DNA of 64,000 nucleotides from positions 893,504 to 957,503 of the forward strand of contig NW_005434658.1 in assembly GCF_000315625.1 (NCBI RefSeq), written 5' to 3'. A program made the position numbers and the translations under genes. Numbering within the stretch: position 1 is the stretch's first letter; each line of letters opens with the position of its first letter. Below are positions 30,621-57,623 of the stretch, in pieces. The DNA comes from Guillardia theta CCMP2712. Taxonomy: Eukaryota; Protista; Cryptophyta. The notes below the pieces were generated by a model. The model saw only the letters and a program-made list of their open reading frames with translations. It made no database searches and had not been told where the DNA came from.

Positions 30621-31116
30621 TAGCTAAGTAAATACATTGGAAACGTGAGGAGACAAACTTTTATAAATCAATTTAAAATTTCAATGATTTTTACGAACAC
30701 CCAAATAATTCATTTATTCCTCTTTATTTTCCTTACCTAATCCCTATTATATTTTATGCAATTGAAATAATAGCTGCGCATTGGTGCGGATTATCACACA
30801 AAATAACCAAAAACAAACGAGCGCACACACGGAGTGTGCCAGAGCAAACATAATATTAATGAAAATTATGAATCCTTCAAGGATCATATAAGTAATAAAA
30901 AAATCTATGTGGGGTGAGGGGGTAAAATATTAAACACGTTGTTTTTACAAACCTTTGCAAAACCCTGCCAATCTTTGAAGAGTGGAGGGTTTTTCAATAA
31001 ATCATAAACCCTCCACTAAACCCTCCACTTCATAAATCATTACCAGAATCATATATATATTTATTATTTATCTGTATATATAGACGTTAGAGGTGGAGGG
31101 TGTGGAGGGTGTGGAA

Positions 31117-31441
31117 GGTTTTTTCAAGAAGTTCTTCTCAGTTGATCGATCTTGGCCTATTAGTAATTGACCTAACAAACCCTCCAACCTTCCACACTCC
31201 CCTCTCTCTATTGGCATTTTTTATTTTTATAAATATTCCTTACTAATTCAATGTTATTTTTTTTCTATTATCTATTATCTATTATCTATTATCTATTATC
31301 TATTATCTATTATCTATTATCTATTATCCATTATCTATTATCTATTATCTATTAGGAGGGTTTTTTCAAGAAGTTCTTCTCAGTTGATCGATCTTGGCCT
31401 ATTAGTAATTGACCTAACAAACCCTCCAACCTTCCACACTC
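31117..31441 (+). repeat. 83-bp direct repeat inside the TIR (31117-31199 and 31359-31441)
   Basis: GGTTTTTTCAAGAAGTTCTTCTCAGTTGATCGATCTTGGCC...CCTTCCACACTC occurs twice and is mirrored in the right TIR. Confidence 0.95.
31264..31354 (+). repeat. 13 x TCTATTA tandem repeat in the TIR (mirror copy 56139-56229)
   Basis: Direct inspection; one TCCATTA variant is present at the same position in both TIRs. Confidence 0.95.
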
Positions 31442-31478
31442 TCCATCCGCCCCAAAAACCTATCTTTCTTTATTATAA

Positions 31479-31949
31479 ATGAGTACTAGAAAAGGCAACA
31501 CATGGATTCAAGCGCTTAAAGAGTTCAATAAAGGTCATTCTGGCACGTGGTGCATTGTCAAGAAAGGATCAAAAGAATATGACGAAGTTAAGCAGATAAT
31601 GGACGATATTAAAAAAAAATCACAACCACACCAACAATATAAAAGCGCTCAAGATGTAAAACCAAATAGATCAAGCATACAACCACACACACAATATAAA
31701 TATACTGCACTACCAAACAGAGGGACATTAAGCATGAAATACAATAATTTGAAACCACATGATTTAATAGTTGAGACTCACAAAGGAAAAACTATTTATA
31801 AATGCCCTGTATGCTCTAGAACATGGAACAAAAAACCAACACAAGAACAAATCGAAAAACATGAAACAACATGGAACCATACATTAAAACTAGGTCAATA
31901 TGAAATACGCGCTTATAATGGAAATAGAGACATAGACCTTGGTCTATAA
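31479..31949 (+). CDS. PLV hypothetical basic protein with C-terminal C2H2-type zinc finger
   Basis: YKCPVCSRTW...IEKHETTWNH; the ATG is the last 3 nt of the left TIR. Confidence 0.75.
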   Translation: MSTRKGNTWIQALKEFNKGHSGTWCIVKKGSKEYDEVKQIMDDIKKKSQPHQQYKSAQDVKPNRSSIQPHTQYKYTALPNRGTLSMKYNNLKPHDLIVETHKGKTIYKCPVCSRTWNKKPTQEQIEKHETTWNHTLKLGQYEIRAYNGNRDIDLGL

Positions 31950-32035: not shown

Positions 32036-33898
32036 ATGAATCGCCAAAAAAGAAACCCCCAACCAGTTCAGAAGTTCAAGCCAGACAACTTTAAAGCCCC
32101 AAAGGCACAAAAGCCCAAGAAGCAACCAAAGCAACCAAAGCAACCAAAGCAAAATCAACCAAAGCAAGCACAGCCCAAGCCTGCACAAGCAAAGACCATC
32201 AACAAGGCGCCGCGTGATGTTGGATTTTACAAGGAGCTTAAGCTTATGAATGATGCCACCTCTCAAGCTTATGAAAACTCATTAAAATTGCTTGATTTCA
32301 ATCAATTCACGGATGCAACTAAAGCCTTTACACTATGGGATAAATTCGAGGCTATGGTTGAAAGTATTAATTCATATGTCAACGGCCCCAACGCTTGGAC
32401 TAATGGAATATATAAGCTAGATTATACACCTGAACAATATAAGAAGATAAAATATAATGTTGTGCCTACATTGGAAGATTTGAAACAAAATAAATATGCT
32501 AATATTGGGCCTGTCAAATCAGACAAAGGACCGGCATCAATGATTAATTTTATTAAGAAAAATGTTCCTGATGTGCCGCAAGATTTACAAGATCTTAAAT
32601 GGATTATAGAGAACCACAGAAAGATTTTAAATCAGATGTTGATTATTAGATTCAATAAGGGTCAATCAGTCGCAACAATTAGGAATGATATATATGATTT
32701 TGCTAGATTGTTGAAAATTGCATTTGGTCCAGATAATGAATTGCACAAAAAACTTGTGATGCTTGCGACCGATTTCGATTATGCAGTTGTAAAAGATCAA
32801 GAGGGAAAAAACCAATTGAACAAATATGAAGAATTAAAATTTATTCCTTATGGTGCATTGCTTGACCTTGTTGAAGAAATGAATAAACAATTTAGAGAAT
32901 CACTCAAAAACAAAGGTAAAGATCATCAAGAGACTTATAAACTGCACATGTATGCCTTAATTTTGCAAGCGTATTTATACACGCCACCGGTAAGGCTTGA
33001 ATTGTCAGATTGTAAATTCACAAGCACATTGAACAATCTTAATAACAACACAGATTATATTTATTTGCCAAACGACAAATCGAAGCTATGTGAATATGTA
33101 TTCAATAAGGACAAGAAAAAGCACGGATCTATAAGGTACTTTGTCGGCTATATGATCAATACCAAAGCAAAGATAAGCGAGAATCTCTCACCATATGCTT
33201 TTAAATTAAGTGATTTCATTCGTGAGAGCTACGCCCTATATCCACGTGAATATTTCATAACACAAATCAAAGATAGAAATAAACCAGCAAAGGCAAATAT
33301 GCCAACCTATTTAAAATATATGTTTGATAAGCATCAATTGAATGTCAATATGTTTCGCAGTAGTTTCGTGACATATCTTTATCAGAACAACACACCAAAT
33401 AAGATTTTACAAGATGTAGCCTTGAAGATGCGCAATAGTGTGATGCAACAACAAGCAACATATAAAAAATCATTGTCCAAAAATGAGATGATCCAGATCA
33501 AACAAGAAAAGGGATTCACTGACCCCCAACCTGCGGCCGCTGAAACAATCAGGATCAAACAAGAACCAACCGATGAGATCCAACCTATCGAGTCAGTACA
33601 ACCAACGCTGCGCTTGGCTTCGCCAACGATAAGGCAACCAATGAAACCACCTATAAAAGATCCTAGAATTAGCGAGAGAGCAAGGCAAAAGAAATATTAT
33701 AACAATAATAAATCTGATATATTAGAAAAGAAAAAACAGCAATACGAAGATAATAAGCAGCGGATAACTGCAACTAAAATAATTAAACGATTGAATGATA
33801 TCATTTCAACCGGTGGCAATGCCAAGCCTACAGCCGCAAGCATGGCAACATATCAACTATACAAAGAAAATAATATATGGAAGAGCCGGATAATCTAA
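32036..33898 (+). CDS. Tyrosine recombinase (virophage/PLV OLV11-like integrase)
   Basis: Catalytic-type motifs in order: YTPPVRLE (R), FNKDKKKHG (K), VNMFRSSFVT (xxxR), ALKMRNS...QQATYKK (Y). Confidence 0.8.
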   Translation: MNRQKRNPQPVQKFKPDNFKAPKAQKPKKQPKQPKQPKQNQPKQAQPKPAQAKTINKAPRDVGFYKELKLMNDATSQAYENSLKLLDFNQFTDATKAFTLWDKFEAMVESINSYVNGPNAWTNGIYKLDYTPEQYKKIKYNVVPTLEDLKQNKYANIGPVKSDKGPASMINFIKKNVPDVPQDLQDLKWIIENHRKILNQMLIIRFNKGQSVATIRNDIYDFARLLKIAFGPDNELHKKLVMLATDFDYAVVKDQEGKNQLNKYEELKFIPYGALLDLVEEMNKQFRESLKNKGKDHQETYKLHMYALILQAYLYTPPVRLELSDCKFTSTLNNLNNNTDYIYLPNDKSKLCEYVFNKDKKKHGSIRYFVGYMINTKAKISENLSPYAFKLSDFIRESYALYPREYFITQIKDRNKPAKANMPTYLKYMFDKHQLNVNMFRSSFVTYLYQNNTPNKILQDVALKMRNSVMQQQATYKKSLSKNEMIQIKQEKGFTDPQPAAAETIRIKQEPTDEIQPIESVQPTLRLASPTIRQPMKPPIKDPRISERARQKKYYNNNKSDILEKKKQQYEDNKQRITATKIIKRLNDIISTGGNAKPTAASMATYQLYKENNIWKSRII

Positions 33899-33984: not shown

Positions 33985-34188
33985 ATGACCGCCAAGGCAC
34001 AGGCTCGCTATTACAAGAAGAGATTCAACAATGATAAAGAATTTCACGACAAAGAATGCAAGAGGATTGCAGAATTTAGAAACAATAAATATTTAAATGA
34101 CGAGGAATACCGAAACATGATCAAACAAAGGTCGCTTGAATATTATTATAGGAAGAAGGCAGAAAGAGAGAATCAATCATCTAATTAA
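33985..34188 (+). CDS. Small basic helical PLV protein
   Basis: 67-aa ORF filling the gap between recombinase and primase, with an upstream AAAAATGA motif. Confidence 0.6.
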   Translation: MTAKAQARYYKKRFNNDKEFHDKECKRIAEFRNNKYLNDEEYRNMIKQRSLEYYYRKKAERENQSSN

Positions 34189-34293: not shown

Positions 34294-36831
34294 ATGAATA
34301 TAAGTAAAAAAAAAATCTCACCTATAAGTAAAAGGATGACTTTTCGCTTGCCTTCTGCAACTTATGATATTCAAGGTGCTATTCAAGACTATAAGCATAT
34401 CAGGGAAGATTTAGGTTTCAAATGTGTCCCCCTCTATCCAAAAGATCCCAATGATAAGGACAACAAGGAATTTGAATCTGACATGATCATTAAAAAAACA
34501 TATGTCCTTGCTGCTGGCTGGAACGATACAAAAATACACAACAAAGAGACATTCAAGATCTGGCATAAATTAATCGATGACAAAATAAACGACAATAAAG
34601 GCGTTCTTTATGCTGTTCTTACTGGAAAGATCAATAATATCACGGTCATCGATCTTGATATTGTTAAGGCTGAGAACAGGAATGAAGAATTTGAAAACTT
34701 GGTGCAATCTGCTGAAACCTTTCAAGTCTCAACACCAAAAGGCGAACATCACTATTTCTTATATTGTCCATATTTGAAAAATAAAATTGGCTTTCTTGGT
34801 TATATTGATATCCTCAATGATACAAAATGCGTCATTGGTGCGGGGACACTCCGTGATGATGGATTTTATAGCATTCTTGAAGAAAATGAGTTAAAACCCA
34901 TCTCAAAAGCATTGTTTGATTTTATCCCAGATAATTTAAAACAAATGATTGACAGCCAACCTTTAAATGATAAAGCATTATATGCATCAGACGCTTCCAG
35001 CAAAGCTGCTCGTAGAGCGCTTGCCGAAGGCAACAACAAACCAGCAAAAGGGCCGAGTGATTCAGTTTCTACAACGTCAGAAGATGCTTTATCTTACGAG
35101 TCAAGTGAAGAAGATTTCGAACAGGTTAAAAATCTGCTTGGTCTTATCTCTCCCGATTGCAACTATGATCAATGGATAAGAGTTCTTGCGGCTGTTGCTA
35201 ATCATCTAGGATCTGATAAAGATGAGGTTTATGATCTCGCTGATGAATGGTCGTCTAAATCTGATAAATATGACGCTCGTTCATTTGGTAAGATATGGAA
35301 TTCTGTCAAAAACTATAAGGATATTAATATTGGGACACTGCACTTTTACGCAAAACAAGAGAATGAAGATCAATATAATAAAATATTCAAGACAAACCAA
35401 ACTAAGAAAAAACTTAATCTCAAAGATTTGAATACGTATTCAGCAATGAAAAAAGCCTTTGAAGAAGACACCTTCAAGGTCAGATATCCCCCAAATATTT
35501 ATCGTAAAGAATATGGCAAAAATTCTTATATTATTTTGGATAGTAAAAAAATACGAGAGGCAAACAATGATATCAAATTTAATAAAATCGTGACCGATAA
35601 GAAAGGCAAACCAGTGCTCGATGAAAACGGCAATCCTATGATTGCAAGAGTTAGCTTTATAAAAGAATGGCTAGATGACGAAGATAAACGAGTATATGAA
35701 GCCGTAAGATTTGACCCAACAAAAACAGTTCCTCCTGAAATCTTCAACACGTTTGAAGGATATGAAGCCGAAAAATTCCCTGAGGTTGATGATGATCGTA
35801 TGATGGAGCTTGTACAACCATATTTAGATCATTTTGATATGCTTATTGGCAAAGAAGGACGAATTTATTGCATGAAATGGCTAGCTAATATAATTCAAAA
35901 CCCAACCAATAAATCGGGGGTTGTTCTCGTTTTCAAGAGTGAAGGCGAAGGATCCGGTAAATCCTCACCCTTTGATTTCTTCGGTAAAAAAGTAATTGGC
36001 AAGAATTACTATAAGGTAACCCGTGATGCTGAAAATGACTTATTCGGCAGATTTAGCAACGGCTTGCATAATTCATTGCTGGTACAACTCGAAGAAATTA
36101 AAGGGACAACATTTCATAAAAATGCCGGACAATTTAGGGATATGATCACTAATAATACAAGCCGTCTCGACTTAAAAGGCATGAATACGATTGAAATCGA
36201 TAATTTAGCGAGTTTCGTGTGTACAACAAACAACGATAACCCTTTGACCATATCAGCAACAGACAGACGATTCTGCGTCTTTAATGTATCCGAAGAAATG
36301 ATCGGTAATGTTAAGTATTTTGATAAATTCACTAATACTATGAAACAGCCAGATTGGGGCGCTGCCATGTTTAAATATCTTAAAAATCTCCCTGATATTC
36401 CAAAAAGCACCGCTGAATTTCAAAACCAAAGGCCCAACGGGGAGGCATACGAAGATATGAGAAAGCAAAACATCCCAACTTGGGCGCGATTCTTTGCAAA
36501 TAAAATAATGTTAAATCAAACGAAATTTGATGATTCGGATGATGAGGATGATAAGGATGATAAGGATGATAAAGATGATAAAGATGATGAGGAAATAATA
36601 CAAGCAAGCAACTTATATTCTGAATATTGCAAATACTGCACAAAAACAAGAAATGAGCAGGCAACTATGAAACAGACCGCATTTTCTCTCAAATTAAAGT
36701 CTATTAAAGGCCTAGAGAAAAAAGAAGAAAACAAATTCAATAAATATTCAATTAACTTCAAAGAAGTTAAAGAGTGGTTAATTCAAAAGAAGTTTTGGGA
36801 CGATGACGCTATTGTTGTTCCTATATTCTAA
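34294..36831 (+). CDS. Primase-helicase: Prim-Pol domain, PriCT-2 and SF3 (D5-like) helicase
   Basis: AVLTGKINNITVIDLD, STPKGEHHYF, IDIL (Prim-Pol); DCNYDQWIRV...DEWSSKSDKYD...GTLHFYAK (PriCT-2); Walker A GEGSGKS, Walker B LVQLEE, motif C TTNN, and DRRF. Confidence 0.92.
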   Translation: MNISKKKISPISKRMTFRLPSATYDIQGAIQDYKHIREDLGFKCVPLYPKDPNDKDNKEFESDMIIKKTYVLAAGWNDTKIHNKETFKIWHKLIDDKINDNKGVLYAVLTGKINNITVIDLDIVKAENRNEEFENLVQSAETFQVSTPKGEHHYFLYCPYLKNKIGFLGYIDILNDTKCVIGAGTLRDDGFYSILEENELKPISKALFDFIPDNLKQMIDSQPLNDKALYASDASSKAARRALAEGNNKPAKGPSDSVSTTSEDALSYESSEEDFEQVKNLLGLISPDCNYDQWIRVLAAVANHLGSDKDEVYDLADEWSSKSDKYDARSFGKIWNSVKNYKDINIGTLHFYAKQENEDQYNKIFKTNQTKKKLNLKDLNTYSAMKKAFEEDTFKVRYPPNIYRKEYGKNSYIILDSKKIREANNDIKFNKIVTDKKGKPVLDENGNPMIARVSFIKEWLDDEDKRVYEAVRFDPTKTVPPEIFNTFEGYEAEKFPEVDDDRMMELVQPYLDHFDMLIGKEGRIYCMKWLANIIQNPTNKSGVVLVFKSEGEGSGKSSPFDFFGKKVIGKNYYKVTRDAENDLFGRFSNGLHNSLLVQLEEIKGTTFHKNAGQFRDMITNNTSRLDLKGMNTIEIDNLASFVCTTNNDNPLTISATDRRFCVFNVSEEMIGNVKYFDKFTNTMKQPDWGAAMFKYLKNLPDIPKSTAEFQNQRPNGEAYEDMRKQNIPTWARFFANKIMLNQTKFDDSDDEDDKDDKDDKDDKDDEEIIQASNLYSEYCKYCTKTRNEQATMKQTAFSLKLKSIKGLEKKEENKFNKYSINFKEVKEWLIQKKFWDDDAIVVPIF

Positions 36832-36881
36832 ACAATTATTATATACATATAATTTTTTAAATTTTTATCTGCAAACTCCTA

Positions 36882-37119
36882 AAGAGTGGAGGGTTTGCAT
36901 GTAAAAATTAACCATCCTATAAACCCTCCACTAAACCCTCCACTTTAAAAAAGATTACTATTATACAGTATATATATTATTTATCTGTATAAATATGGTC
37001 GTTTGAGTGGAGGGTGTGGAGGGTGTGGAGGGTTTTTTTCACAAGTTCTCTCAACCAATACCCAACGCTTGATAAGTAATTAAGGACCTAAACCCTCCAA
37101 ACCCTCCACATTCTCCATC
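36882..37119. promoter_or_regulatory. Candidate replication origin: TGGAGGG/CCCTCCA iteron block, a diverged internal copy of TIR segment ~30978-31199
   Basis: Same order and orientation of 8 heptamers around an AT-rich spacer as in the TIRs; lies just downstream of the primase-helicase stop. Confidence 0.65.
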
Positions 37120-37157
37120 TAAACTAAAAAAATTAATAATAAATTTATATTCTTGCA

Positions 37158-37490
37158 TCAATCAAAGCACTCATTGAATTCATCTATTTCATCCATGCTA
37201 TTAAACAGATTACCGATGTAATCATCGGATATAATTTCGTATTTATAGGCCACATAATCAAGTTCATCAATATATTTAATCATCTTATTATGTAGCTCTG
37301 CATGACTTGAATTATTTTTAAATATATCTTTCATCTCTATGAAGATATCAATATTTTCAAGAAAGAAATTTAGCTTAAACTCCATCATAGCTATTGCTAT
37401 ATCGATGTTATCCATGACCTTATCAATGTTATAATTTTTTTCAAATATCCTCTCTTGGATATCATGCGGCAACTCAAACAGATCAAACAT
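37158..37490 (-). CDS. Small acidic protein with F-box-like N-terminus
   Basis: LFELPHDIQERIF resembles the LxxLPxEIxxxIF F-box start. Confidence 0.5.
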   Translation of the reverse strand: MFDLFELPHDIQERIFEKNYNIDKVMDNIDIAIAMMEFKLNFFLENIDIFIEMKDIFKNNSSHAELHNKMIKYIDELDYVAYKYEIISDDYIGNLFNSMDEIDEFNECFD

Positions 37491-37586: not shown

Positions 37587-37892
37587 ATGTCCTATAAACA
37601 TGTTAAGCTATCTAGAAGCGATGTTAAAGGCAAGAAATACAAGATGGAATTTTATAACAAGGATAAGCAAAGAATAAAAACTATACATTTCGGCGCTATT
37701 GGCTATTCAGATTATACCAAGCATAAAGATGATAGTCGCAAGGCTAATTATATAAGCCGCCATCAATCAAGTGAAAATTGGAATGTACCAGACACAGCGG
37801 GAAGCTTGAGCCGATGGATTCTATGGAATCATAAAAGCTTAAATGAATCTTATAAATCTTATCTAAATAAATTTAACCTTACTAAATTGTAA
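37587..37892 (+). CDS. Conserved NCLDV/PLV small basic protein (DUF5754-like)
   Basis: KKY...TIHFGAIGYSDYTKHKD...YISRH...AGSLSRWILW pattern. Confidence 0.7.
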   Translation: MSYKHVKLSRSDVKGKKYKMEFYNKDKQRIKTIHFGAIGYSDYTKHKDDSRKANYISRHQSSENWNVPDTAGSLSRWILWNHKSLNESYKSYLNKFNLTKL

Positions 37893-37893
37893 A

Positions 37894-38139
37894 ATGGATC
37901 GACTCCCCCAAAATGGATATGCCATCATCACAAAGATAGGATGTCAGTATTGTGATTGGCTTGAAGACTTCTTAATTGATAAAGCCATTGAATATAAAAA
38001 ATTTGATATCCTCGAATTCAATGATGAAGAAATGAAAGATTTGAAAAGCAAATTAAATTTCAAGACATACCCCGCCTTTATTCGTGATAGATATTGTATA
38101 GGAGGGTATAAAGAGGCCCTTCGGCACTTAGATCGTTAA
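37894..38139 (+). CDS. Glutaredoxin-like protein
   Basis: GCQYC active-site motif, TYP cis-Pro motif, IGGY. Confidence 0.85.
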   Translation: MDRLPQNGYAIITKIGCQYCDWLEDFLIDKAIEYKKFDILEFNDEEMKDLKSKLNFKTYPAFIRDRYCIGGYKEALRHLDR

Positions 38140-38687
38140 GCATCGTTAATAACGATATTAGCATTGCTATTGTGATTACTGTCACCATTGAGAATATAGG
38201 GAATATATGTATAATTTGAAATCTTCTTTTTCATCTGTTGCTTACAATAATCAGGTATGTTATCCGTGTTCTCCATAAGATTATCATAGGCAACAATAAA
38301 ACTGTTTAATTTTTCATTATTCATGTCATTGAGATTCATTGTTGTCTCAATGCTATGTTCAAGTTTGCTAAACTTCATTCCTAATATGAAGAATTGACTA
38401 GCCTTCTCGTTAAACTTTAATTGATTATTTAATGATATTAAGATAGCAGTTAAGGCATTGAATACAATATTTATAATCTTCATTTCCTTGCTGTCAATGT
38501 TGCTATTGAGAATAGCCATCGCTGATGATGTAATGATCAGAGGAACTTGCAGCAATTGCTTCCAAAAATTATAATATGAACCCACATTGTTGCAAAGAAT
38601 AGACATGATTTTTGACATCTCCTTGTATTTGTCCCATAATGATATAGATGAGACACACCTTTGCAAATCTTCATTGACCATCACCAT
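38136..38687 (-). CDS. Two-TM SLATT-like membrane protein
   Basis: Helix, TM (LQVPLIITSSAMAILN), TM (IVFNALTAILISL), then KFNEKASQF...FSKL coiled region: a SLATT-type layout. Confidence 0.55.
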   Translation of the reverse strand: MVMVNEDLQRCVSSISLWDKYKEMSKIMSILCNNVGSYYNFWKQLLQVPLIITSSAMAILNSNIDSKEMKIINIVFNALTAILISLNNQLKFNEKASQFFILGMKFSKLEHSIETTMNLNDMNNEKLNSFIVAYDNLMENTDNIPDYCKQQMKKKISNYTYIPYILNGDSNHNSNANIVINDA

Positions 38688-38962: not shown

Positions 38963-39859
38963 TTACTCATTAAGAGATATATAATTGCCTATTAAGACAA
39001 ATAATCGGCTTAAATACATCTCAAGCCTATTGATTGCTTTTAAAATCGTTGTCTTGTTTGTCAATGAATACGTCTTAAATTCTAGATTAATGACATAATT
39101 TGACAATCTCTTGAATTCTTGCCCATTCTCATTTATGATCCTTATCTTGATGTTATTGATTGCCTTATTTGATATCTTATATTCATTACAATTGCTTGCA
39201 TCAATAAGGCTATAAAATGGTATATCATTTAAATTGATTATGCCTAATACCTGCGAGCTCTTGAAATCATTATATATGATATTATTGATTGAAGATGCCT
39301 CAAGATTGACATCGCCGCTAATCTCTATAATCAAATTGCTATGACCTGATAGATTCACAAATGAAGGCAATTCTTGGCCCAATTCTAATATCTCATATTG
39401 TATATTGTCATCACAGCCAACCAGAATGCCACAACTTACAGATGTAAAATAATATCTGCCGAATTCATCAGATATATTCTTTTTGACAATGATTGAATTT
39501 CTTTTCTCATTGTATGAAAATGTAATCTGTGCCTCTGCTATATAGATATTGTTTTGCACAATGTCATTTAAATCTCTAATCAAATTATCTATGCTATAGA
39601 ATCCCTCTGATAAATAGAAATTATGATTTGTTGTTTGTTCATCTGGGCTCACAAATGTTATCTTAAATGCATTATTGACACTAGGAATAACAGCGAAAAA
39701 GCTTTTTATCATAGAGAAGTTTTTCAAAGATACTGTCAAATATTCATCACTTCGACATTTAATTAAGCCATTTGTCAAAGCATAATTCACATTTGAAATC
39801 TCTTCATTGATTTGTCTATTCTTTGACGATATTAAGACGTTAAGGCTTTGGTGAGCCAT
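38963..39859 (-). CDS. Minor capsid protein (penton), PLV type
   Basis: LISSKNR, NNAFKI, LSEGFYS, NL..HSNLIIEI, VLGII, INNIKIRIINENG...YVINLEF pattern typical of PLV mCPs; adjacent to the MCP genes. Confidence 0.75.
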   Translation of the reverse strand: MAHQSLNVLISSKNRQINEEISNVNYALTNGLIKCRSDEYLTVSLKNFSMIKSFFAVIPSVNNAFKITFVSPDEQTTNHNFYLSEGFYSIDNLIRDLNDIVQNNIYIAEAQITFSYNEKRNSIIVKKNISDEFGRYYFTSVSCGILVGCDDNIQYEILELGQELPSFVNLSGHSNLIIEISGDVNLEASSINNIIYNDFKSSQVLGIINLNDIPFYSLIDASNCNEYKISNKAINNIKIRIINENGQEFKRLSNYVINLEFKTYSLTNKTTILKAINRLEMYLSRLFVLIGNYISLNE

Positions 39860-39886: not shown

Positions 39887-41308
39887 ATGTCTCTACCGAA
39901 TGCTTTAAATGTAGATATAAATGAAATCAAGGATTTCAGAAAAACCATCGTTTCGTTCTTTCCTGAGGAAATAAGCAGATCATACAAACCGAGCGATACA
40001 ATAAAAATCAAATTCCCAAAGGGATTATTGGATCTATCATCATTCAATATATTCTTCGATGGTGAAACCTCATTCTATCGATTGGTATCAAATGGAGGCG
40101 TGTTCTATTCATTAAATTATCATTTTCCTAAGCATACGCAGTCAATTATTCAATCTTTACGAGTCTTTATCAATAATAACGAAATTTCAAATATCGATGA
40201 ATTCAACACTATATACAATATTATATATGATATCGAGCACGAAACATTGAACAATAATGCCGTTGATAACCAATCTCCTGAATTTAAAGTAATTTCTATT
40301 GACGGATATCAATATGATACAAGTTTTAATGTTGCATATAGCAGATCAACGCGTAATATAGGGAATACATTAAGTTCAGGTTGGTTCCAGTATGCAGCCC
40401 AACCAACAGAAGCATATAAAGAGAGATTCGGCATCACGGAATGGATAGGATTTTTTAGAGATTTAAAATATATCAATACCCACAATATCGATTTATCAAT
40501 TGAAATCGAGTTGGCGCCTGCTTATATTATGTTCCAACATACGACAGCAGGAACACAAAGAAGAGCAGCAGGAGACACGCAGGTAATCGATGGAGGGGCT
40601 CCATCTTACACAATATCAAATGTAAAGGCAAACATCCATAAGCTAGATTTCGAGGGTGCCCCTAACATTTTGAATAACAATTTGATCTTTACCGATTATG
40701 TCTCTAGAAAGGGCCAAAAATTGACAGTTGATAAGAACCAAAAACTAACAATGAATGTCAAAGCCGAATGTATTAAAAAATTGATTGCTACATTTCTAAG
40801 GAATACAAGAGAGACAGAAACGGCAGCCTTTCAATCAAATTTAACAAATCATTTTGGCGTAGAATATCAAAGATTGATAAGAGAGGATGCAACGACTCGC
40901 TTAGGCAATTCTATATATTTTAAACGACAGGGCAAGGGAATCAAGAATGTATCTTTTTATATTGATGATATACCTATTAATAATAACCCGATGGATTTGA
41001 TAGAGATCGAGAGAGAAACAAAGCACGCATTTAATATCAGAAAAACATTATGGAATGATGTTTATGAGTTTCAAAATGATTTTTTCAGCGCTGTGATGTC
41101 CCTTGAAGATCATATTAAAACAAAGGACGGTATTGTTAAATCTGGATATAATACAAATGGAAGGAATGCAAAGATCATGTTTGAATCTCAGGCCTTCGGT
41201 GTCCCTGCAGGAACACAGAATGAAGCTGATTTTATCGGCACACCGATTTTATTCATAGAAACAGAAAGGACAATAAACATCGATAACAATAATATATCGA
41301 TATCTTAG
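39887..41308 (+). CDS. Major capsid protein paralogue 1 (double jelly-roll, PLV type)
   Basis: YKPSDTIKIKFP..LLDLSSF..FPKHTQSIIQSLRVFIN..ISNIDEFN; collinear with the next ORF. Confidence 0.75.
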   Translation: MSLPNALNVDINEIKDFRKTIVSFFPEEISRSYKPSDTIKIKFPKGLLDLSSFNIFFDGETSFYRLVSNGGVFYSLNYHFPKHTQSIIQSLRVFINNNEISNIDEFNTIYNIIYDIEHETLNNNAVDNQSPEFKVISIDGYQYDTSFNVAYSRSTRNIGNTLSSGWFQYAAQPTEAYKERFGITEWIGFFRDLKYINTHNIDLSIEIELAPAYIMFQHTTAGTQRRAAGDTQVIDGGAPSYTISNVKANIHKLDFEGAPNILNNNLIFTDYVSRKGQKLTVDKNQKLTMNVKAECIKKLIATFLRNTRETETAAFQSNLTNHFGVEYQRLIREDATTRLGNSIYFKRQGKGIKNVSFYIDDIPINNNPMDLIEIERETKHAFNIRKTLWNDVYEFQNDFFSAVMSLEDHIKTKDGIVKSGYNTNGRNAKIMFESQAFGVPAGTQNEADFIGTPILFIETERTINIDNNNISIS

Positions 41309-48866: not shown

Positions 48867-51800
48867 ATAAAAAATTCAGTCTCATTCGGATTATTTGGAG
48901 GAGAATTTAAGGGGGTGGGACCATTTACATAATGAAATCCAAAATTTGGGAGCCCATTAAAATCTTGATAGTTCGTAGTTGGAAATATGATGCCGCTATT
49001 ATTGAATAGATAAAAGTTTGGATTTGACACCAAAGCCGGCTTATTTGTTAAATTATTATAATCTCCATTAAAAAGACTAGTGCTAAGAGCAGAATTATTT
49101 ATATATAAATCAGTACAGTTTATAATACCATTAACATCAAGTTTATAAGCTGTGTTAGTTGTTGTTGTAGCAATGCTTACAGTGCCATCATAACTTATTT
49201 TCATTTTTGTGTCTGTAGCAGCTTGGCAATCAACTTGATTATCATTATTTCTAAGCATAAAATACATATCACCAAGTCCATAACTGTTAAAGCTTCTTTG
49301 TATAACCCCTATGGCTTGCGATGCATATTGACCTCTATATATAGAGTGATTAAATCCAATAGCACAACGACAATTAGTAGTTGTATTATTTCCATTATCA
49401 TTTATCAGAAGCATTTTAGGAGCTGTTGAATTTCCTATAATAAATAGAGGTATGCCTGATTGAGGTTGTGTTGTATCTACTGAGCCATTTCCAAGCACCA
49501 TGCTTGCAGGACATTTTAACCCTGCGTTTGTAATATCTAGCTTTGTGTTTGTAATATTTCTATCAATTCTCACTTGTTCAATCCAACTATCACGAATATT
49601 ATTGGCCCCATATTTTCCAATAACAAAATCAAGATTAGTGTTGAGGCCAATTCTGAAATCTACACCAGTGCTATTTAGATTTCTAGAAAGTATAATATGA
49701 CCGTCCGTGTTTGCAACGCTGCTATTTCCGACATGTAGAGGCGCTTGCGGATTTACATTATTTATGCCTACACAAGGGTTAGATACTAAGCTATCATAAG
49801 GATTTACAGTCAAAGGATTATAAATATTTGTATTAAGTTTAGATTCTATCCCAAAGAAATTGAGTGCAATGTTAGTAACACCTGTCCCGATTCTATAATC
49901 TTGTATGTTTGTGCCAATAGGGTCTAATGAAGATGCCCCGCGTTTGAACTCAAGCCACGGCTGACCTCCTGAGTCATATATTCTTAATACTTTCGAAACT
50001 AATAAATCATAATAAGTATTGTTATTAAAGTTTAGCTCACCATCTACAAGCTTAAAACTTGAACTAACAGATGTTATTGTATTACCTGATATAGGAACAT
50101 CGTTGAATTGTAAATTAGGACCATATATATAAACACCTTGACTATTCCATTTTATCCGTGTTGTATTGTACCAACTAATATATCCCCAGTCTGTACTATT
50201 AATCACAACCTTATTTCCCCAAGTTGTATCATTAGAAATAAATATATAATTGTCATTTGTTTGTTTGACACCAAGAACCAAATATTTATCGTGAAATATC
50301 TTAGGTAATTGTGCGCCATCATTATCCTTTAATCCTATTTCAATACCATTTGCAGAAATATTCCCTTCAATCTGTAATTTGGAACTATTATTAGGGATTG
50401 TGCCTATTCCAACGTTACCGGTATTATAATATATATCATTATTTACTTTTGTCCATTTTGAAGCTAAACCGCCGCTAGTCGCTAATCCCCCAGTGAATGA
50501 TAGTAAGCCATTGCTTACACTAAAATCTGCTGATACAAGTTTAATATATTCATTTTCTGACAAAAGATAAGGTGACAAAGTGCTTGTCAGACTTGAAGAT
50601 GTAACATAGCTGCCTAGCGTGCTTGTCAGACCTGAAGATGTAACATAGCTGCCTAGCGTGCTTGTCAGACTTGAAGATGTAACATAGCTGCCTAGCGTGC
50701 TTGTAAGATTTGTATTGGTCACATAGCTTGTAAGATTTGTATTGGTCACATAGCCGTCTAGTGTGCTTGTAAGGTTTGTATTGGTCACATAGCTGCCTAG
50801 TGTGCTTGTAAGGTTTGTATTGGTCACATAGCTGCCTAGTGTGCTTGTAAGGTTTGTATTGGTCACATAGCTTGTAAGATTTGTATTGGTCACATAGCCG
50901 TCTAGTGTGCTTGTAAGGTTTGTATTGGTCACATAGCTGCCTAGTGTGCTTGTAAGGTTTGTATTGGTCACATAGCTGCCTAGTGTGCTTGTAAGGTTTG
51001 TATTGGTCACATAGCTGCCTAGTGTGCTGGTTAGACTTGAAGATGTCACATAGCTTCCTAGCGTGCTTGTAAGGTTTGTATTGGTCACATAGCTGTTTGT
51101 GAGACTTAATTGTCCAACAGCTGACACATTAAAATCTGATGTAACATCTCTTATATATTGATTATCTGATGTAAATAAATCAGGCTTTCCAGTTATTTGA
51201 GTATCATAATCAAATGATGTCGGAATGTCACTTATCAAAGCATTGTTTATAGAATCAAGGTAGGCCGCTGTGTTTATATCTGAATAACCTGTTGGAATAA
51301 CAATATTATCTATCTTGTTATCTATTTCTTCATTAGTATATGGATTAATTACTTCTTTGATGCTCAATGAACCTACACCATTATACCCGATAATATCTCT
51401 TACTTCATTTTGAGTCAATTCTCTATTGAAAAACCTTAAATCTTGATAATATGATTGCAAACTTGGAAAAAAACCTTTTGATGGATAGATGTTTCCAAGT
51501 AAAGATTTATTCCAAGTCATACTTTGCAAATATGATTTGGGTATATTTGTTTGAAAAGGAATTCCATTTTGATATAAAATGATACCAGCACCCCCAATTG
51601 TTATGGTGTAATGGTCCCACGTATTTAAATTATAGTAAAAATATGATACATTTGTTGTTGAATAATTAACTTCGATAGCAATATTTCCATTAGATATATA
51701 TAATCTGATGCCATAGGCCCCTCCACTGGTTGAATCTATGCCACTGTTTAAATCGATGATTGTATTACCTATAGTAGGATAACCATCATATCTTTTGATA

Positions 51801-54800
51801 TACAACCAGAAAGAACACGTAAGAAAACCATTATAATCTATTGATGGCAATTTTACAATTGTATTTAAAACATAGTAACAAAACCCAGAGAGCGTGCTTG
51901 TCTTTGGAATGGCTGCATGTGAGAAAGACACAGTCAATGAACTGCCTCCAGTGTTATCGCTGAATCTTATTCTTATTGGATAATATTTATATGCTGTATT
52001 TAAATATATAGTTCCTGACCGCTCTTGTGTGCCATGAGTTCCACCATTATTAACGACCAATGTCTCTGTACCATCTACAGTCAACCAAAGATAGCTTTCA
52101 TCGTCACTATTAGTATAAAATGTAAAATTGCCTAAGTATCCAGAAGTATAAAAATAACCTACATATTCAACTGCGAATCTGTCCTCTGAAATATTCCAAG
52201 AATTAGAAATACGAAGTGCAACACCAACGGAATTAATAGGGTCATTTCCATAATTAGCATATCCATTATTCCATTTTGTATATGCCAAACCATCAAGATT
52301 AAAAGTATCGAGAGAGAGACTTTTTTTATTTGTTTTTACAGTATGAGACGCAAATGAATGACCGCCATAAGCTATTTGTACATCAGGTTTTAGGGATAAA
52401 GTATCAGCCAAAGAATCATCAAATTTGTACCAAGCTATATCAGGAATTGGACCAGTATATTCGATACTAGGTTTTAAATAACTAGTACCACTGCTAGAAT
52501 ATTGAAAATTATAAGCATCGGTATTTATTATAACATTATCATAGAGCTTATCTTGAAAATTAAGTGATACAGTTCTATTTGATAACGTTAAATATAAAGC
52601 TGTATTTGTTTGATTATATGTCTCTATTTGAATGTGGTCATATATTGACACATCATTTGTTTGATTGACTATGAATTGCGCAGGGTCAAAGTTATAAGAA
52701 TTTTTTTGAATATCTTGATAAAGCTTATTGCTTGTGTTGTTCAATGTTGTTATATTGATATAATTGCTTGATGCTATCCAATTGTTATAATTGGTAACAC
52801 TTAGGATATTACTATTAGCTATCCAATTGTTATAATTGGTTGTACTTAGGATATTACTATTAGCTATCCAATTGTTATAATTGGTTGTACTTAGGATATT
52901 ACTATTAGCTATCCAATTATTATAATTGGTTGTACTTAGGATATTACTATTAGCTATCCAATTATTATAATTGGTTGTACTTAGGATATTACTATTAGCT
53001 ATCCAATTATTATAATTGGTTGTACTTAGGATATTACTATTAGCTATCCAATTGTTATAATTGGTAACACTTAGGATATTACTATTAGCTATCCAATTAT
53101 TATAATTGGTTGTACTTAGGATATTGCTATTAGCTATCCAATTATTATAATTGGTAGTACTTAGGATATTGCTTGATGCTATCCAATTATTATAATTGCT
53201 TATTTCTAGATAGTCAGGCAATGCCTCGACGACTGATTCTGTCTGTTGTGTTGTCTGATTATATAATAATTTGACATATCCTGTTCTATTTTGCGAATCA
53301 TACACATCATTAACATTAGTGACTGCCGTTGTACCTCCCAAAGATAAACTTCTCCTACCAACTCCTCCGCTCGTGGTAATACTTGTGGCAACCGTTGATA
53401 TATCCACATTTTGCACTGATATGTTTTGAGCTACAACCGTTTGCGTGCTCAAATCTATAACGCTAAGATTACCCCTTTTAATATCTATAAAATCAACCTC
53501 TAATTTACCGCTAATCTTTGCCGATAAATCGTTGTTAAATATCTGATTGATAGCATCAGAATACTTGTTTTCAGTCCAAAATAGATTTATTGTCTCAAGT
53601 GTCCAAGATATATATTTGCTTATTGCTATTAAATCGAGTTTATTTGATTCATTGATAGCCTCTTGACCTGTTGGCCCTTGCTCGTGGTCTATTATTCTAA
53701 AATGATGATTATTATTATTGACATTATATAACTCTTTAAAATTTGTTATTTGTGTTGTCCCCTCAATCTTCAATTCAAATTGATTGCGTATTGTATAAAA
53801 TATGGTTCCATCTTCACGGAGAACAAAGCAATAAAAATTTAGTTCAGCGATGCGACTATTTTGAACACTAAAAACAGGGCCGCCAATATTTGGATAAACA
53901 TAAGCAAAAGCATTTATATTTATCGTTTTCTTCTCGTAGCTTAAAACATTGTTTGTATTCTTATAATATATCTCAAACACTAAATCAAGAGATATGTTGG
54001 TAATATTTAGCGAACCATCTTGAGTTATTTGATAATCTAGATAACAAATAAAACCTCTATTATTTGGTATATTCTCAGTTGTTAAACCAGCCAAATAATA
54101 ATTGAATAAATTATATTTGCCGCTGTAATATTTGCCATTCATATAATTAGTCTTAGGTCTAAATTGATAATAAAAATAGATAGAGAATTTATTTGTAAAA
54201 CTAATGTCAAAACATTCGATATAAAAATTGTCTGGGATGGCTGTCATTCTATTTGCAAAAGAATACCTGACCCATTCCCTATCTTGTGCTGGATAGGTTG
54301 GCACGGTTTCATATGGAGAACCATTCAAAAAGTCCCAATTGTCATAAGTAATTGTATATGTATCATTCAATTGATTTTTAATATAGTTCGGTGCTATTAG
54401 TTGATTGCCTTGTAATTTTAGGAAGATATCGGCTATATATAGACTGTCTGGCCCTGTTACAGTAAGCTTCTTTGTTGTGAATGATTCTCCTATTAGAGCA
54501 AATTGATTTGCCATTTGTGTTTGATTAACAAAATTAGAGCTATTTATAAAATTTGTGTAGGTATCCGTTTTCAGGAAATTAGAGCTATTGAGATAATTTG
54601 CATAGACATCCGTTTTTAGGAAGTTTGAGCTTGCCAGATTTTGATATGAAAGAAATGTATCCAATCCCTGCTGTTTTGTGTAAAAGTCTGTTGATAATTC
54701 CCATTCTTGATTATCATTGAAATATAGATTGCCTATAAACCCCGGTTTGACATCGTTTATAAGTGTGCTTGCTGTATGTTTTGTTCTTATATGATTGTAT

Positions 54801-56014
54801 AATACATTTGACTCTTCATATATTTTGTTGAATAATATATTAGACTCTGTCAATATATGATCAAATAATATATTTGACTCATCGTATATGTGATTATATA
54901 ATATGTTCGATGTATTATCAATTATATCATCTATCTCATTTTTGTCATAGATATTAGGGACAATAATATCATCAATAAAAAGAGTTTTACCTTTGAATAT
55001 TGTTTTATATTGCTTTAATGTTTGCAGTGCATAATTGCTACCAAATACAAATTCATTTAATTCATCTTGTGTTAATTCATTGCCTAATGTTATAACTTCT
55101 TCACCTTGAAAAACAATATTTCTTTCGTCTAAAACTGTCTGTTCCTGTCCATCAATAACAAGCAATTTATACGTGTCATTATATATAAATGCTTCGTTAG
55201 GGACCAAAGCAAGTTTTTCACCATCTGTTAGATTCCTAGAATATATTTTAATGACTCTACCTTGTAATTTAGTATTTATTACCTCATTTTCAAGAACAGA
55301 AATAACAACACCTAATGATAATCTTAAAACATTAATCCACGAGAGAATAAACAGGCCATCAGCTTTTGAGGTGTTTGTTCCTGACGCTATCAATCCCCCA
55401 ATGAAGCCAGTTCCAATTGCTAGCCCTCCTTTTATAATTTCACCTAAACCACTAAATAAATTAAAGCCATTTTCAGCCGTATCGTCCAAATCTTCTAAGG
55501 ATTGGGCAGCATTTGCGGTTTCTTGCGCGGCAGCATTGTTGTTTAAATCATCTAATTGTTGTTTAATCTGTTGAATTGTAATAAATGAGCCGTTTTCAAG
55601 TGTGAATTTAATGATATATTTATTAGGATTAGTCTGATATTTGACATATAATATATTCCTATTGTTGTTTGTTAAAATGGTCTCATTCGTGTTAGAATCA
55701 TATTTGATAAGAGATTGCAGATCTAGAACAAAATTTGATGTGTTAAACAATATATTGCTTGTTTCAATTAAGTTATTACTAGTAATAAGTAATAAATCAT
55801 TTGTTTCAATTAAGTTATTGCTAGTTTCAATGGTGATAATTTCTAGATCGTTAGTCTTTTGAAATAGTTCGGTTGTCTGATGATTAAGGACATCAACATT
55901 ACTATAAAGGACATTGATATTTGAATTTATTTTATTAAAAATAGGCGTTAAAGTTGTGTTATTAGTAGTGCCGACATACTGATATAAATTTTGATATCTA
56001 TTGTCACATGACAT
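48788..56014 (-). CDS. Giant fibre/adhesin-like virion protein (repeats, LamG-like domain with inserted PA14 domain, GNVGIG fibre motifs)
   Basis: 2408-aa ORF. PA14 (YVGYF...FYTNSDD...NNGGTHG...YPIRIRF), LamG (AWYKFD...SFWL...WDHYTIT...QDLRFFNRELTQNEV), YNTGNVGIGT, VGINNVNPQAPLHV. Confidence 0.8.
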   Translation of the reverse strand: MSCDNRYQNLYQYVGTTNNTTLTPIFNKINSNINVLYSNVDVLNHQTTELFQKTNDLEIITIETSNNLIETNDLLLITSNNLIETSNILFNTSNFVLDLQSLIKYDSNTNETILTNNNRNILYVKYQTNPNKYIIKFTLENGSFITIQQIKQQLDDLNNNAAAQETANAAQSLEDLDDTAENGFNLFSGLGEIIKGGLAIGTGFIGGLIASGTNTSKADGLFILSWINVLRLSLGVVISVLENEVINTKLQGRVIKIYSRNLTDGEKLALVPNEAFIYNDTYKLLVIDGQEQTVLDERNIVFQGEEVITLGNELTQDELNEFVFGSNYALQTLKQYKTIFKGKTLFIDDIIVPNIYDKNEIDDIIDNTSNILYNHIYDESNILFDHILTESNILFNKIYEESNVLYNHIRTKHTASTLINDVKPGFIGNLYFNDNQEWELSTDFYTKQQGLDTFLSYQNLASSNFLKTDVYANYLNSSNFLKTDTYTNFINSSNFVNQTQMANQFALIGESFTTKKLTVTGPDSLYIADIFLKLQGNQLIAPNYIKNQLNDTYTITYDNWDFLNGSPYETVPTYPAQDREWVRYSFANRMTAIPDNFYIECFDISFTNKFSIYFYYQFRPKTNYMNGKYYSGKYNLFNYYLAGLTTENIPNNRGFICYLDYQITQDGSLNITNISLDLVFEIYYKNTNNVLSYEKKTININAFAYVYPNIGGPVFSVQNSRIAELNFYCFVLREDGTIFYTIRNQFELKIEGTTQITNFKELYNVNNNNHHFRIIDHEQGPTGQEAINESNKLDLIAISKYISWTLETINLFWTENKYSDAINQIFNNDLSAKISGKLEVDFIDIKRGNLSVIDLSTQTVVAQNISVQNVDISTVATSITTSGGVGRRSLSLGGTTAVTNVNDVYDSQNRTGYVKLLYNQTTQQTESVVEALPDYLEISNYNNWIASSNILSTTNYNNWIANSNILSTTNYNNWIANSNILSVTNYNNWIANSNILSTTNYNNWIANSNILSTTNYNNWIANSNILSTTNYNNWIANSNILSTTNYNNWIANSNILSTTNYNNWIANSNILSVTNYNNWIASSNYINITTLNNTSNKLYQDIQKNSYNFDPAQFIVNQTNDVSIYDHIQIETYNQTNTALYLTLSNRTVSLNFQDKLYDNVIINTDAYNFQYSSSGTSYLKPSIEYTGPIPDIAWYKFDDSLADTLSLKPDVQIAYGGHSFASHTVKTNKKSLSLDTFNLDGLAYTKWNNGYANYGNDPINSVGVALRISNSWNISEDRFAVEYVGYFYTSGYLGNFTFYTNSDDESYLWLTVDGTETLVVNNGGTHGTQERSGTIYLNTAYKYYPIRIRFSDNTGGSSLTVSFSHAAIPKTSTLSGFCYYVLNTIVKLPSIDYNGFLTCSFWLYIKRYDGYPTIGNTIIDLNSGIDSTSGGAYGIRLYISNGNIAIEVNYSTTNVSYFYYNLNTWDHYTITIGGAGIILYQNGIPFQTNIPKSYLQSMTWNKSLLGNIYPSKGFFPSLQSYYQDLRFFNRELTQNEVRDIIGYNGVGSLSIKEVINPYTNEEIDNKIDNIVIPTGYSDINTAAYLDSINNALISDIPTSFDYDTQITGKPDLFTSDNQYIRDVTSDFNVSAVGQLSLTNSYVTNTNLTSTLGSYVTSSSLTSTLGSYVTNTNLTSTLGSYVTNTNLTSTLGSYVTNTNLTSTLDGYVTNTNLTSYVTNTNLTSTLGSYVTNTNLTSTLGSYVTNTNLTSTLDGYVTNTNLTSYVTNTNLTSTLGSYVTSSSLTSTLGSYVTSSGLTSTLGSYVTSSSLTSTLSPYLLSENEYIKLVSADFSVSNGLLSFTGGLATSGGLASKWTKVNNDIYYNTGNVGIGTIPNNSSKLQIEGNISANGIEIGLKDNDGAQLPKIFHDKYLVLGVKQTNDNYIFISNDTTWGNKVVINSTDWGYISWYNTTRIKWNSQGVYIYGPNLQFNDVPISGNTITSVSSSFKLVDGELNFNNNTYYDLLVSKVLRIYDSGGQPWLEFKRGASSLDPIGTNIQDYRIGTGVTNIALNFFGIESKLNTNIYNPLTVNPYDSLVSNPCVGINNVNPQAPLHVGNSSVANTDGHIILSRNLNSTGVDFRIGLNTNLDFVIGKYGANNIRDSWIEQVRIDRNITNTKLDITNAGLKCPASMVLGNGSVDTTQPQSGIPLFIIGNSTAPKMLLINDNGNNTTTNCRCAIGFNHSIYRGQYASQAIGVIQRSFNSYGLGDMYFMLRNNDNQVDCQAATDTKMKISYDGTVSIATTTTNTAYKLDVNGIINCTDLYINNSALSTSLFNGDYNNLTNKPALVSNPNFYLFNNSGIIFPTTNYQDFNGLPNFGFHYVNGPTPLNSPPNNPNETEFFMCVTLAAVIIIMVTRLMAYKLRILLM
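50575..51095 (-). repeat. Coding tandem repeat, 39-bp unit (YVTNTNLTSTLGS) with some 27-bp truncated units
   Basis: Direct inspection of DNA and protein. Confidence 0.9.
52760..53205 (-). repeat. Coding tandem repeat, 45-bp unit (NYNNWIANSNILSTT), about 10 copies
   Basis: Direct inspection of DNA and protein. Confidence 0.9.
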
Positions 56015-56867
56015 TTATAATAAAGAAAGATAGGTTTTTGGGGCGGATGGAGAGTGTGGAAGGTTGGAGGGTTTGTTAGGTCAATTACTAATAGGCCAAG
56101 ATCGATCAACTGAGAAGAACTTCTTGAAAAAACCCTCCTAATAGATAATAGATAATAGATAATGGATAATAGATAATAGATAATAGATAATAGATAATAG
56201 ATAATAGATAATAGATAATAGATAATAGAAAAAAAATAACATTGAATTAGTAAGGAATATTTATAAAAATAAAAAATGCCAATAGAGAGAGGGGAGTGTG
56301 GAAGGTTGGAGGGTTTGTTAGGTCAATTACTAATAGGCCAAGATCGATCAACTGAGAAGAACTTCTTGAAAAAACCTTCCACACCCTCCACACCCTCCAC
56401 CTCTAACGTCTATATATACAGATAAATAATAAATATATATATGATTCTGGTAATGATTTATGAAGTGGAGGGTTTAGTGGAGGGTTTATGATTTATTGAA
56501 AAACCCTCCACTCTTCAAAGATTGGCAGGGTTTTGCAAAGGTTTGTAAAAACAACGTGTTTAATATTTTACCCCCTCACCCCACATAGATTTTTTTATTA
56601 CTTATATGATCCTTGAAGGATTCATAATTTTCATTAATATTATGTTTGCTCTGGCACACTCCGTGTGTGCGCTCGTTTGTTTTTGGTTATTTTGTGTGAT
56701 AATCCGCACCAATGCGCAGCTATTATTTCAATTGCATAAAATATAATAGGGATTAGGTAAGGAAAATAAAGAGGAATAAATGAATTATTTGGGTGTTCGT
56801 AAAAATCATTGAAATTTTAAATTGATTTATAAAAGTTTGTCTCCTCACGTTTCCAATGTATTTACTT
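56012..56867 (-). repeat. Right terminal inverted repeat (856 bp)
   Basis: Reverse complement of 30626-31481. Confidence 0.97.
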
Positions 56868-56872
56868 GCTAG

Positions 56873-57623
56873 CCAGTTGGCTCCTTCCGAAATCTCTCCA
56901 AGTTGAAGAATGGAGTTCTGTACAAGATAGTCTCAGGAGCTGTCGATGTTGAGAGCGGATCGAAAGAACTTCTCAAAGAAATGAAGGAAGTCGGGTTGGA
57001 CACAAGTCAAATTGTCAAGCCTTCGGAAATTCATGAGTGTCTTTCAAGCATCCTGGAGTCAGTCAGGGTGAATGGAGACATACGAGACATGATCCAGTGC
57101 CTGCGTTTTGATGGGATCCAGACATGTCTGCTTTCGCATACAAGGAAAAGAGAAGGAAGAGACGCAAACATGGTCAAGGATGAGATGGCCGTGCTCAACA
57201 AAGAGATGATTCGGCATTTCAATGCTACGTTTCAATATTCCGACCAACAGTTCAAGAAGGAACCTCAAATCTTTCACGAGATATTCAATGTAGTTTGTGT
57301 TGACAACTGATGGGCCACTTGTAACTAATTTTCCATTGTGCAGAAATTCTCTTTGCATCCGGAGGAGGTGGTCTTTTTAGACCCACGGAAAGATATGCTT
57401 CAACCAGCTGCCAAACTCGGTGTGAAAACGTTGCAGGTAGTGCTCACTGTCCTTTGTTTGGTTGTTTTGAGATTAATCGTTACAGGCTGAGAATGCCAAC
57501 AAGGCAATCGAGCTTCTTGAGGATGAATTGCAAGTCCCGTTGCGCAACTTTGCTTGGACTCGTGATCAATATGCGAAGGTCTTGTGGGTATCCAACAAAG
57601 ATTGTAATAGTGCAAGCACATAG
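56873..57623 (+). CDS. 3' part of the interrupted host HAD-like hydrolase gene
   Basis: PVGSFRNLSKLKNGVLYK...CLLSH...KKEPQIFHEIFN|KFSLHPEEVVFLDPRKDMLQPAAKLGVKTLQ|AENANKAIELLEDELQVPL: HAD motifs III/IV. Confidence 0.75.

Follow-up and report, generated by a model that had tools for sequence, protein, structure and literature searches.

The 64,000-nucleotide stretch of Guillardia theta CCMP2712 DNA analyzed here (the window) very probably carries a complete Polinton-like virus (PLV) provirus, element 3 of this alga, within an exon of a host HAD-hydrolase gene; the element's own tyrosine recombinase probably inserted it there in recent times, from a circle and at a core of 2 bp. On sequence comparison, the insert is the published G. 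theta PLV element 3 (Guil3; Yutin et al., 2015, PMC4642659): the MCP1_Guil3, MCP2_Guil3, and ATP_Guil3 rows in supplement 3 of that paper match the ORFs at 41346, 39887, and 44583 throughout the stretches shown (a comparison by eye that covered the greater part of the trimmed rows and the beginning of the untrimmed ones). At the four visible sites that differ in a near-identical database protein (P0001, 98.8% identical to the MCP), the published row has the residue found in the window, so the window holds the published copy and not a sister.

Element ends and insertion site

The insert (30621..56874; 26,254 bp including one copy of the core) comprises the whole element. Its GC content (33.4% within 30626-56867) is lower than that of the adjoining 3 kb on each side (45–46%) and of the entire flanks (53% left, 50% right). 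Exact alignment of the TIRs gave 0 mismatches over 856 nt (100% complementary) and, because the arms are identical, the variant unit of the 7-mer array is common to both. A preliminary description of this DNA had reported the 26 kb AT-rich insert, the matching 856-bp TIRs, and the shared variant unit, and these all hold. The ends and their repeats are as follows:

30626..31481, + strand: left TIR; within it lie the 7-mer array, two direct repeats of 90 nt, and the first ORF's start codon
56012..56867, − strand: right TIR, containing the start codon of the fibre gene
30620..30625, + strand: element end beyond the perfect TIR, matching 56868-56872 in inverted orientation with a bulge of 1 nt
36869..37126, + strand: internal copy of a portion of the TIR, in direct orientation and diverged (78% over 209 nt)

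The inverted match of the element ends thus reaches ~5 bases past the perfect TIR, and both start codons lie at the inner ends of the TIRs. The internal copy sits after the primase-helicase gene; together with the TIR it brackets the recombinase and the replicase, that is, an end module. A 20-nt TIR-end pattern had 0 matches among viral contigs; two metagenome loci with this pattern were dropped as chance, the match spanning just 20–27 nt.

For the ORF directly to the right of the element, a single longer homologue was found: the HAD-family protein P0172 (275 aa) of Hanusia phi. P0172 aligns with the left flank as far as the element and then continues on the right flank; as a homologue from Hanusia phi, it is also independent support for the host. 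The element divides one exon of a host HAD-hydrolase gene, with one half in each flank:

30370..30620, + strand: 5′ part of the host HAD-hydrolase gene (exon 30370-30507, intron 30508-30561, exon 2 up to the insertion)
56875..57623, + strand: 3′ part of the gene (remainder of exon 2; introns 57290-57343 and 57422-57485)
30619..30620, + strand: CC core, which recurs at 56873-56874

When 30621-56874 is removed and the three GT-AG introns are spliced, the host gene reads through 275 codons with 0 internal stops and is identical to P0172 at 209 of 276 positions; the coordinates first described, 30621-56874, delimit in length and register just the segment that must come out for the host frame to be restored. 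The sharp GC step at the element edges would also be expected if a co-cultured virus or contaminant had been joined to algal DNA during assembly, but we regard such a misjoin as extremely improbable because excision restores the host reading frame. The flanks are consecutive exon halves that join in frame when precisely the length of the element is taken out; the stretch 27000-60000 contains no N letters, so there is no gap near either junction; and the text of Yutin et al. reports junction-spanning sequence for the G. theta elements (PMC4642659). Judged from the sequence, the AT-rich block is thus inserted into this locus. The insertion is probably recent, a reading that fits the identical TIRs and a host gene that is split in one exon and otherwise open, without decay; the earlier view of a complete, integrated, and probably recent PLV is upheld.

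We tested all in-frame, stop-free joins within 30612-30626 / 56866-56881. The best five (30617/56872 to 30621/56876) are free of indels and share one offset, 26,254 bp, and no other offset is indel-free; these joins are equally good and delimit a 5-base crossover window. When the junctions are compared base by base at this frame-restoring offset, CC is the sole contiguous sequence that both contain. The shared core, derived in this way from protein homology, is likely 2 bp and not a 6-bp duplication; because synonymous positions make the five joins equally good, a longer overlap containing mismatches may also be compatible with them. Duplications of 3 bp (GCT) or, offset, of 5 bp (CTAGC) were rejected, since each leaves a stop or shifts the host frame. 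As reconstructed, the junctions have no target-site duplication of the rve type.

This layout is consistent with a recombining circle in which a tiny core lies between the inverted ends. Some bacterial tyrosine recombinases require little overlap homology. The junctions also fit the pseudo-TSDs, offset and partly symmetric, that have been noted beside YREC elements (Bulzu et al., 2025, PMC12220804). A literature search (most subscription papers lay outside its scope) found no attachment or empty site of a recombinase-bearing PLV. The exact host gene and the 2-bp core are new detail relative to the published element; compared with the text of Yutin et al. (2015), the host gene, the core, the fibre frameshift, and the sister copies are added here, although the figure and supplement of that paper may show some of these.

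Genes of the element

The genes in the preliminary description (recombinase, Prim-Pol/SF3 helicase, two major capsid proteins [MCPs], minor capsid protein [mCP], ATPase, and giant fibre) are all present. Those for recombination and replication lie near the left end:

32036..33898, + strand: tyrosine recombinase, 620 aa, catalytic residues R320, K361, R441, and Y476
34294..36831, + strand: primase-helicase, 845 aa, with Prim-Pol-type primase motifs, PriCT_2, and an SF3/D5-like helicase

The recombinase has 186 relatives at E values up to 0.001. In an alignment of the query with the 49 longer, better-scoring of the 150 listed matches, R320, K361, R441, and Y476 are invariant (50 of 50 sequences). 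The canonical tyrosine recombinase pattern is R-K-(H)-R-(H/W)-Y; both His positions of this classic motif are replaced throughout the aligned family. The best match of the recombinase profile among solved structures, XerC-like 4a8e, is weak (E 0.015) and spans the second Arg to the Tyr, and the Pfam phage-integrase family was matched by only one of the 50 members. By its R-K-R-Y residues, the predicted 620-aa protein is a tyrosine recombinase.

The 845-aa ORF contains PriCT_2 and D5/VapE-like helicase domains together with primase-type motifs. For pPolB, rve integrase, and protease, searches with Pfam, PHROGs, and NCBIfam gave no match, in agreement with the earlier observation that none is recognizable; several ORFs of 110–295 aa lack annotation. 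The pPolB that characterizes Maverick/Polinton elements was thus not found, and the largest ORF without annotation has 295 aa.

The capsid and packaging genes are as follows:

41346..42854, + strand: MCP1 (MCP1_Guil3), 502 aa, double jelly roll
39887..41308, + strand: MCP2 (MCP2_Guil3), 473 aa, second major capsid protein
38963..39859, − strand: minor capsid (penton-like) protein, 298 aa
44583..45548, + strand: packaging ATPase (ATP_Guil3), 321 aa, Walker A at residues 42-49

A model of MCP1 built with a 12-sequence alignment (pLDDT 65.3, pTM 0.73) matched PBCV-1 Vp54 with a Foldseek E value of 1.2e-14 (VIA Z 24.8, rmsd 5.4, 357 residues aligned); the MCPs of mavirus and Sputnik scored below PBCV-1 (Z about 19). 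Judged from this model, MCP1 is a double-jelly-roll capsid protein, so the fold predicted for the MCPs fits for the one that was modelled. MCP2 aligned with the MCP1 profile over its full length (hhalign probability 99.8, E 1.7e-28, 24% identity) and, by this profile comparison, is related to MCP1. These are the two MCPs found, the other ORFs without annotation having at most 295 aa. For the 298-aa ORF, the model is of low confidence (pLDDT 62.6, pTM 0.45); its best matches are the pentons of mavirus, Sputnik, and adenovirus, with that of mavirus at the top (E 9.4e-7, Z 10.2, rmsd 6.4, 250 aligned), and we assign it as a putative penton-like minor capsid protein. The 321-aa ORF carries Walker A and Walker B motifs and matches ATP_Guil3; an A32 family match for it was absent from Pfam and from the solved structures, and a sequence-profile search of solved structures gave no match for MCP1 or the ATPase. 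A 228-aa ORF was considered as a second minor capsid protein and found no support (hhalign probability 0.1; no Atlas match).

The remaining ORFs are listed here, those given by their length being unassigned, with the fibre gene last:

31479..31949, + strand: 156-aa ORF, weak zinc-finger-like match (E 0.035)
33985..34188, + strand: 67-aa basic ORF
37158..37490, − strand: 110-aa ORF
37587..37892, + strand: DUF5754 / Tlr6F-like protein (E 3.8e-20; the name Tlr6f is from Bulzu et al., PMC12220804)
37894..38139, + strand: glutaredoxin-like protein (CxxC)
38136..38687, − strand: SLATT-domain protein (E 1.7e-11, below the curated cut-off)
42964..43611, + strand: GIY-YIG endonuclease (E 1.8e-5), missing from a related copy in run X1
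43657..44571, + strand: two ORFs of 112 and 177 aa
45448..47413: three ORFs of 118 aa (+), 228 aa (+), and 295 aa (−)
47442..56014, − strand: giant fibre-like gene; its product has Laminin_G_3 and PA14/GLEYA domains as well as repeats of 13 and 15 residues

As a candidate promoter motif, TATCT occurs upstream of 7 of 18 genes (1.7 expected); its p value of about 0.001 is uncorrected for the ~1000 words tested and is non-significant after correction, and the candidate was rejected.

Fibre frameshift, related copies, and expression

Near 48869, a frameshift in a homopolymer run breaks up the fibre gene: a 2408-aa ORF is followed by a downstream frame of 475 codons, which ends at 47442. The preliminary description, which considered the ORFs essentially intact, was correct in that they are otherwise uninterrupted and make up 95% of the DNA between the TIRs, but it missed this frameshift. 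Four runs were compared with 36600-50500, that is, contigs from X1, X2, and X5 and RNA from X18. At the frameshift, two bases of the window are absent from the contigs in all three of the contig runs, and the window's form occurs in none; the depth with the 2-nt difference equals the total depth at 48869 in each (160.3/160.3 in X1, 5.32/5.32 in X5, and 4.28/4.28 in X2). The simplest reading is that the frameshift is an assembly error; it may also be real in this copy, and because contigs drop minority alleles, a copy-specific slip would be compatible with these depths.

The same runs point to relatives of the element. Overlapping contigs from X1 and X2 have other alleles (e.g., 39399-39581 at about half of the summed depth), and a contig joint in X1, 42830-43631, skips 42831-43630, that is, the GIY-YIG gene. 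These alternative alleles and this joint show that the runs contain at least one relative, be it a copy, an allele, or a strain; depth is not to be read as copy number. In X5, which is labelled as a freshwater metagenome, relatives with 90–99% identity reach about 100-fold depth over the penton and ATPase regions, and depth over the MCP genes is low at the 90% cut-off. A near-identical database protein also exists for the recombinase (94%). Scans of viral contigs with MCP1 and with the MCP1 alignment gave confirmed relatives for 0 of 2 and 0 of 81 pattern matches, respectively, and an exact-sequence look-up of eight element proteins in a 15-billion collection found none of them present.

For 27000-36999, the listing of matching runs included no RNA. 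In the X18 RNA, 45 of the 19,816,771 records read (~6% of the run) fell on 36600-50500, 13 of these at ≥99%, and depth was at most 0.42 in all 30 bins of this region; this suggests that the element is near-silent in one RNA library, which has no host-gene control and whose strain may differ.

If the frameshift is real, the element could be a recent but dead-end provirus, mobilized only via sister copies or never. The loss of the last 475 codons of the fibre gene and the near-zero RNA signal would agree with this, and the related copies could be the source of the unshifted contigs. We nevertheless consider a dead end unlikely: no contig from X1, X2, or X5 carries the frameshift, homopolymer runs often give rise to assembly errors, the remaining genes are open, and R-K-R-Y is conserved in the recombinase.

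Comparison with known elements and proposed life cycle

By the PLV definition in the text of Yutin et al. (2015), element 3 belongs with the PgVV-like group: it has a double-jelly-roll MCP, a penton, an A32-like ATPase, and, at 26.25 kb with 856-nt TIRs, the size (18–28 kb) and long TIRs of a PLV genome. It resembles Maverick/Polinton elements in its TIRs, size, double-jelly-roll MCP, mCP, and ATPase and differs from them in that pPolB, the rve integrase, and a 6-bp TSD were not found. The gene combination had been thought unusual and its architecture in need of classification; neither view is supported, since the same set is common in cryptophyte PLVs (Bulzu et al., 2025, PMC12220804) and MCP and ATPase trees that include element 3 were published in 2015 (PMC4642659). 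The text of the 2015 paper describes TIRs and states that all three integrated G. theta PLVs have distinct tyrosine recombinases near their ends, two of the three have an AEP-S3H primase-helicase, several PLVs have MCP duplications, and the protease is generally absent from PLVs.

Bulzu et al. describe tandem MCPs (adjacent pairs in 104 other cryptophyte PLVs), tyrosine recombinase, AEP-S3H, giant fibres, and no protease as common in cryptophyte PLVs, and they link the tyrosine recombinase with the absence of TSDs. Their Table S5 places 'Guillardia-3' in cluster C6. In their Table S6, recombinase, primase-helicase domains, Laminin_G_3, Tlr6f, and SLATT occur in all three G. theta PLVs and pPolB, rve, and protease in none (0 of 3), with 0 virophage-type MCPs in G. 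theta; GIY-YIG (PF01541) is also given as 0 in the three, whereas we found one in element 3 (E 1.8e-5). The two-MCP PLVs of Storeatula and Rhinomonas nottbecki (C5/C6) belong to another host genus and likewise have YREC without true TSDs, AEP-S3H, SLATT, Tlr6f, and no protease, with Laminin_G_3 fibres of up to 3.9k aa (PMC12220804). A strong general correlation of tyrosine recombinases with AEP or PolA replicases is reported in the available text of a 2026 preprint. The combination that the preliminary description found notable is thus the rule in the group.

As far as their published descriptions extend, Gezel-14T (PgVV) and the Tetraselmis Tsv-S2x PLVs have, as does element 3, the recombinase beside the primase-helicase near one end, and Gezel-14T has a direct repeat in the TIR and just downstream of a mobile 'end module' (PMC11296320), like 36869-37126 here; those PLVs have been isolated or reactivated and their helper giant viruses are known, whereas element 3 is known here from its sequence. 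The Trimcap PLVs have three divergent MCP paralogues, in contrast to the two in element 3, and a mixed capsomer is proposed for them from AlphaFold 3 models (available text of bioRxiv 10.64898/2026.06.19.733378).

In the life cycle that we propose, the recombinase would bind the inverted ends, which in the circle would face each other across the core, and would join the circle ends to a barely homologous host site; the reverse recombination would excise the element as a circle. The primase-SF3 helicase may start replication at TIR-type origins, and replication would depend on a polymerase of the host or a helper virus, a dependence proposed because the searches revealed no pPolB-type DNA polymerase. 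Assembly and filling of an icosahedral particle would be the task of the two MCPs together with the penton and the ATPase, and attachment to glycans on the cell surface would fall to the fibre. By analogy with the PLVs of Tetraselmis and Phaeocystis, the provirus is probably silent until a trigger arrives, most likely a co-infecting giant virus.

Host enzymes might instead suffice, with element 3 being an autonomous nuclear virus or capsid-bearing transposon that needs no giant-virus helper. TsV-N1 is described as an autonomous lytic PLV (available text of bioRxiv 10.64898/2026.06.19.733378 and 10.1101/2025.10.09.676808), MCP transcripts have been observed in cryptophyte cultures without detectable giant viruses (PMC12220804), and the related copies in the runs suggest spread within the genome. 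We find this autonomy conceivable but doubtful, given the near-silence in one RNA library and the strict giant-virus dependence that the text of the latter preprint reports for Tetraselmis S2x PLVs with the same module of recombinase and D5 primase-helicase.

As a discovery, the element carries little weight, since both it and its set of genes have already been published. A broader and tentative proposal, to which we give less than even credence, is that the cryptophyte PLV recombinase, which lacks both catalytic His residues, is a nearly homology-independent transposase that inserts into host exons via a 2-bp core, and that its family is active now. What can be offered for current activity is the recent copy, the sister copies that differ by the mobile GIY-YIG gene, and the 90–99% relatives at ~100-fold contig depth in the freshwater metagenome. 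If this proposal is true, the trigger or helper virus of a two-MCP PLV could be sought in G. theta as a readily available laboratory system, in which excision has a defined PCR target. The practical gain is the exact attachment site, which leads to a PCR assay of excision (restored host exon, circle joint) in the cultured alga; this assay would probe the proposal that recombinase-bearing PLVs circularize and move, and whether they answer to giant-virus infection in cryptophytes.

Fibre gene, 228-aa ORF and repeated motifs

The gene for the giant fibre (47442-56014, minus strand) is interrupted by a frameshift at window position 48869 that lies inside a homopolymer run. This shift is missing from the contigs in all three of the sequencing runs compared, so it is possibly an assembly error. 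The 228-aa ORF at 45843-46529 looks beta-rich when judged by eye; it matched no family, nothing in the Atlas and no penton profile.

A diverged internal copy of the motifs of the 856-nt terminal inverted repeat (TIR) is located at 36869-37126, 3' of the primase-helicase gene; this copy is a candidate origin or, alternatively, a candidate scar from an end-module swap. The word TATCT occurs upstream of 7 of the 18 start codons in the element (1.7 expected; not significant after correction), and a similar word is present in the 7-mer array of the TIR.

Related copies in sequencing runs

In run X1, one contig omits window 42831-43630 and with it the GIY-YIG gene; this suggests a mobile origin for the nuclease, as an insert carried by some copies only. 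Another contig in X1 departs from the element at 47413 into at least 255 GC-rich bases and is possibly a sister copy broken by host or transposon DNA.

Over window 37064-48200, run X5 contains relatives (90-99% identical, about 100-fold depth) as well as near-identical pieces (about 5-fold depth), and it has certain alleles in common with the second form found in X1. X5 is labeled as a freshwater metagenome; in contrast, descriptions of G. theta give it as a marine alga.

Host genes around the element

Host genes recognized in the window include:

10321-11358, polyprenyl synthetase (Pfam E 4e-21)
57868-58617, exonuclease/endonuclease/phosphatase-family protein (E 3e-5)

An assembly gap (22100-22700; 560 N, flanked by CAT repeats) is located about 8 kb to the left of the element. 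The element splits exon 2 of a host HAD-hydrolase gene (parts at 30370-30620 and 56875-57623). The gene is otherwise open, and its product is identical to the Hanusia phi homologue (P0172, 275 aa) at 209 of 276 positions; presumably, it is knocked out on the haplotype that carries the element.
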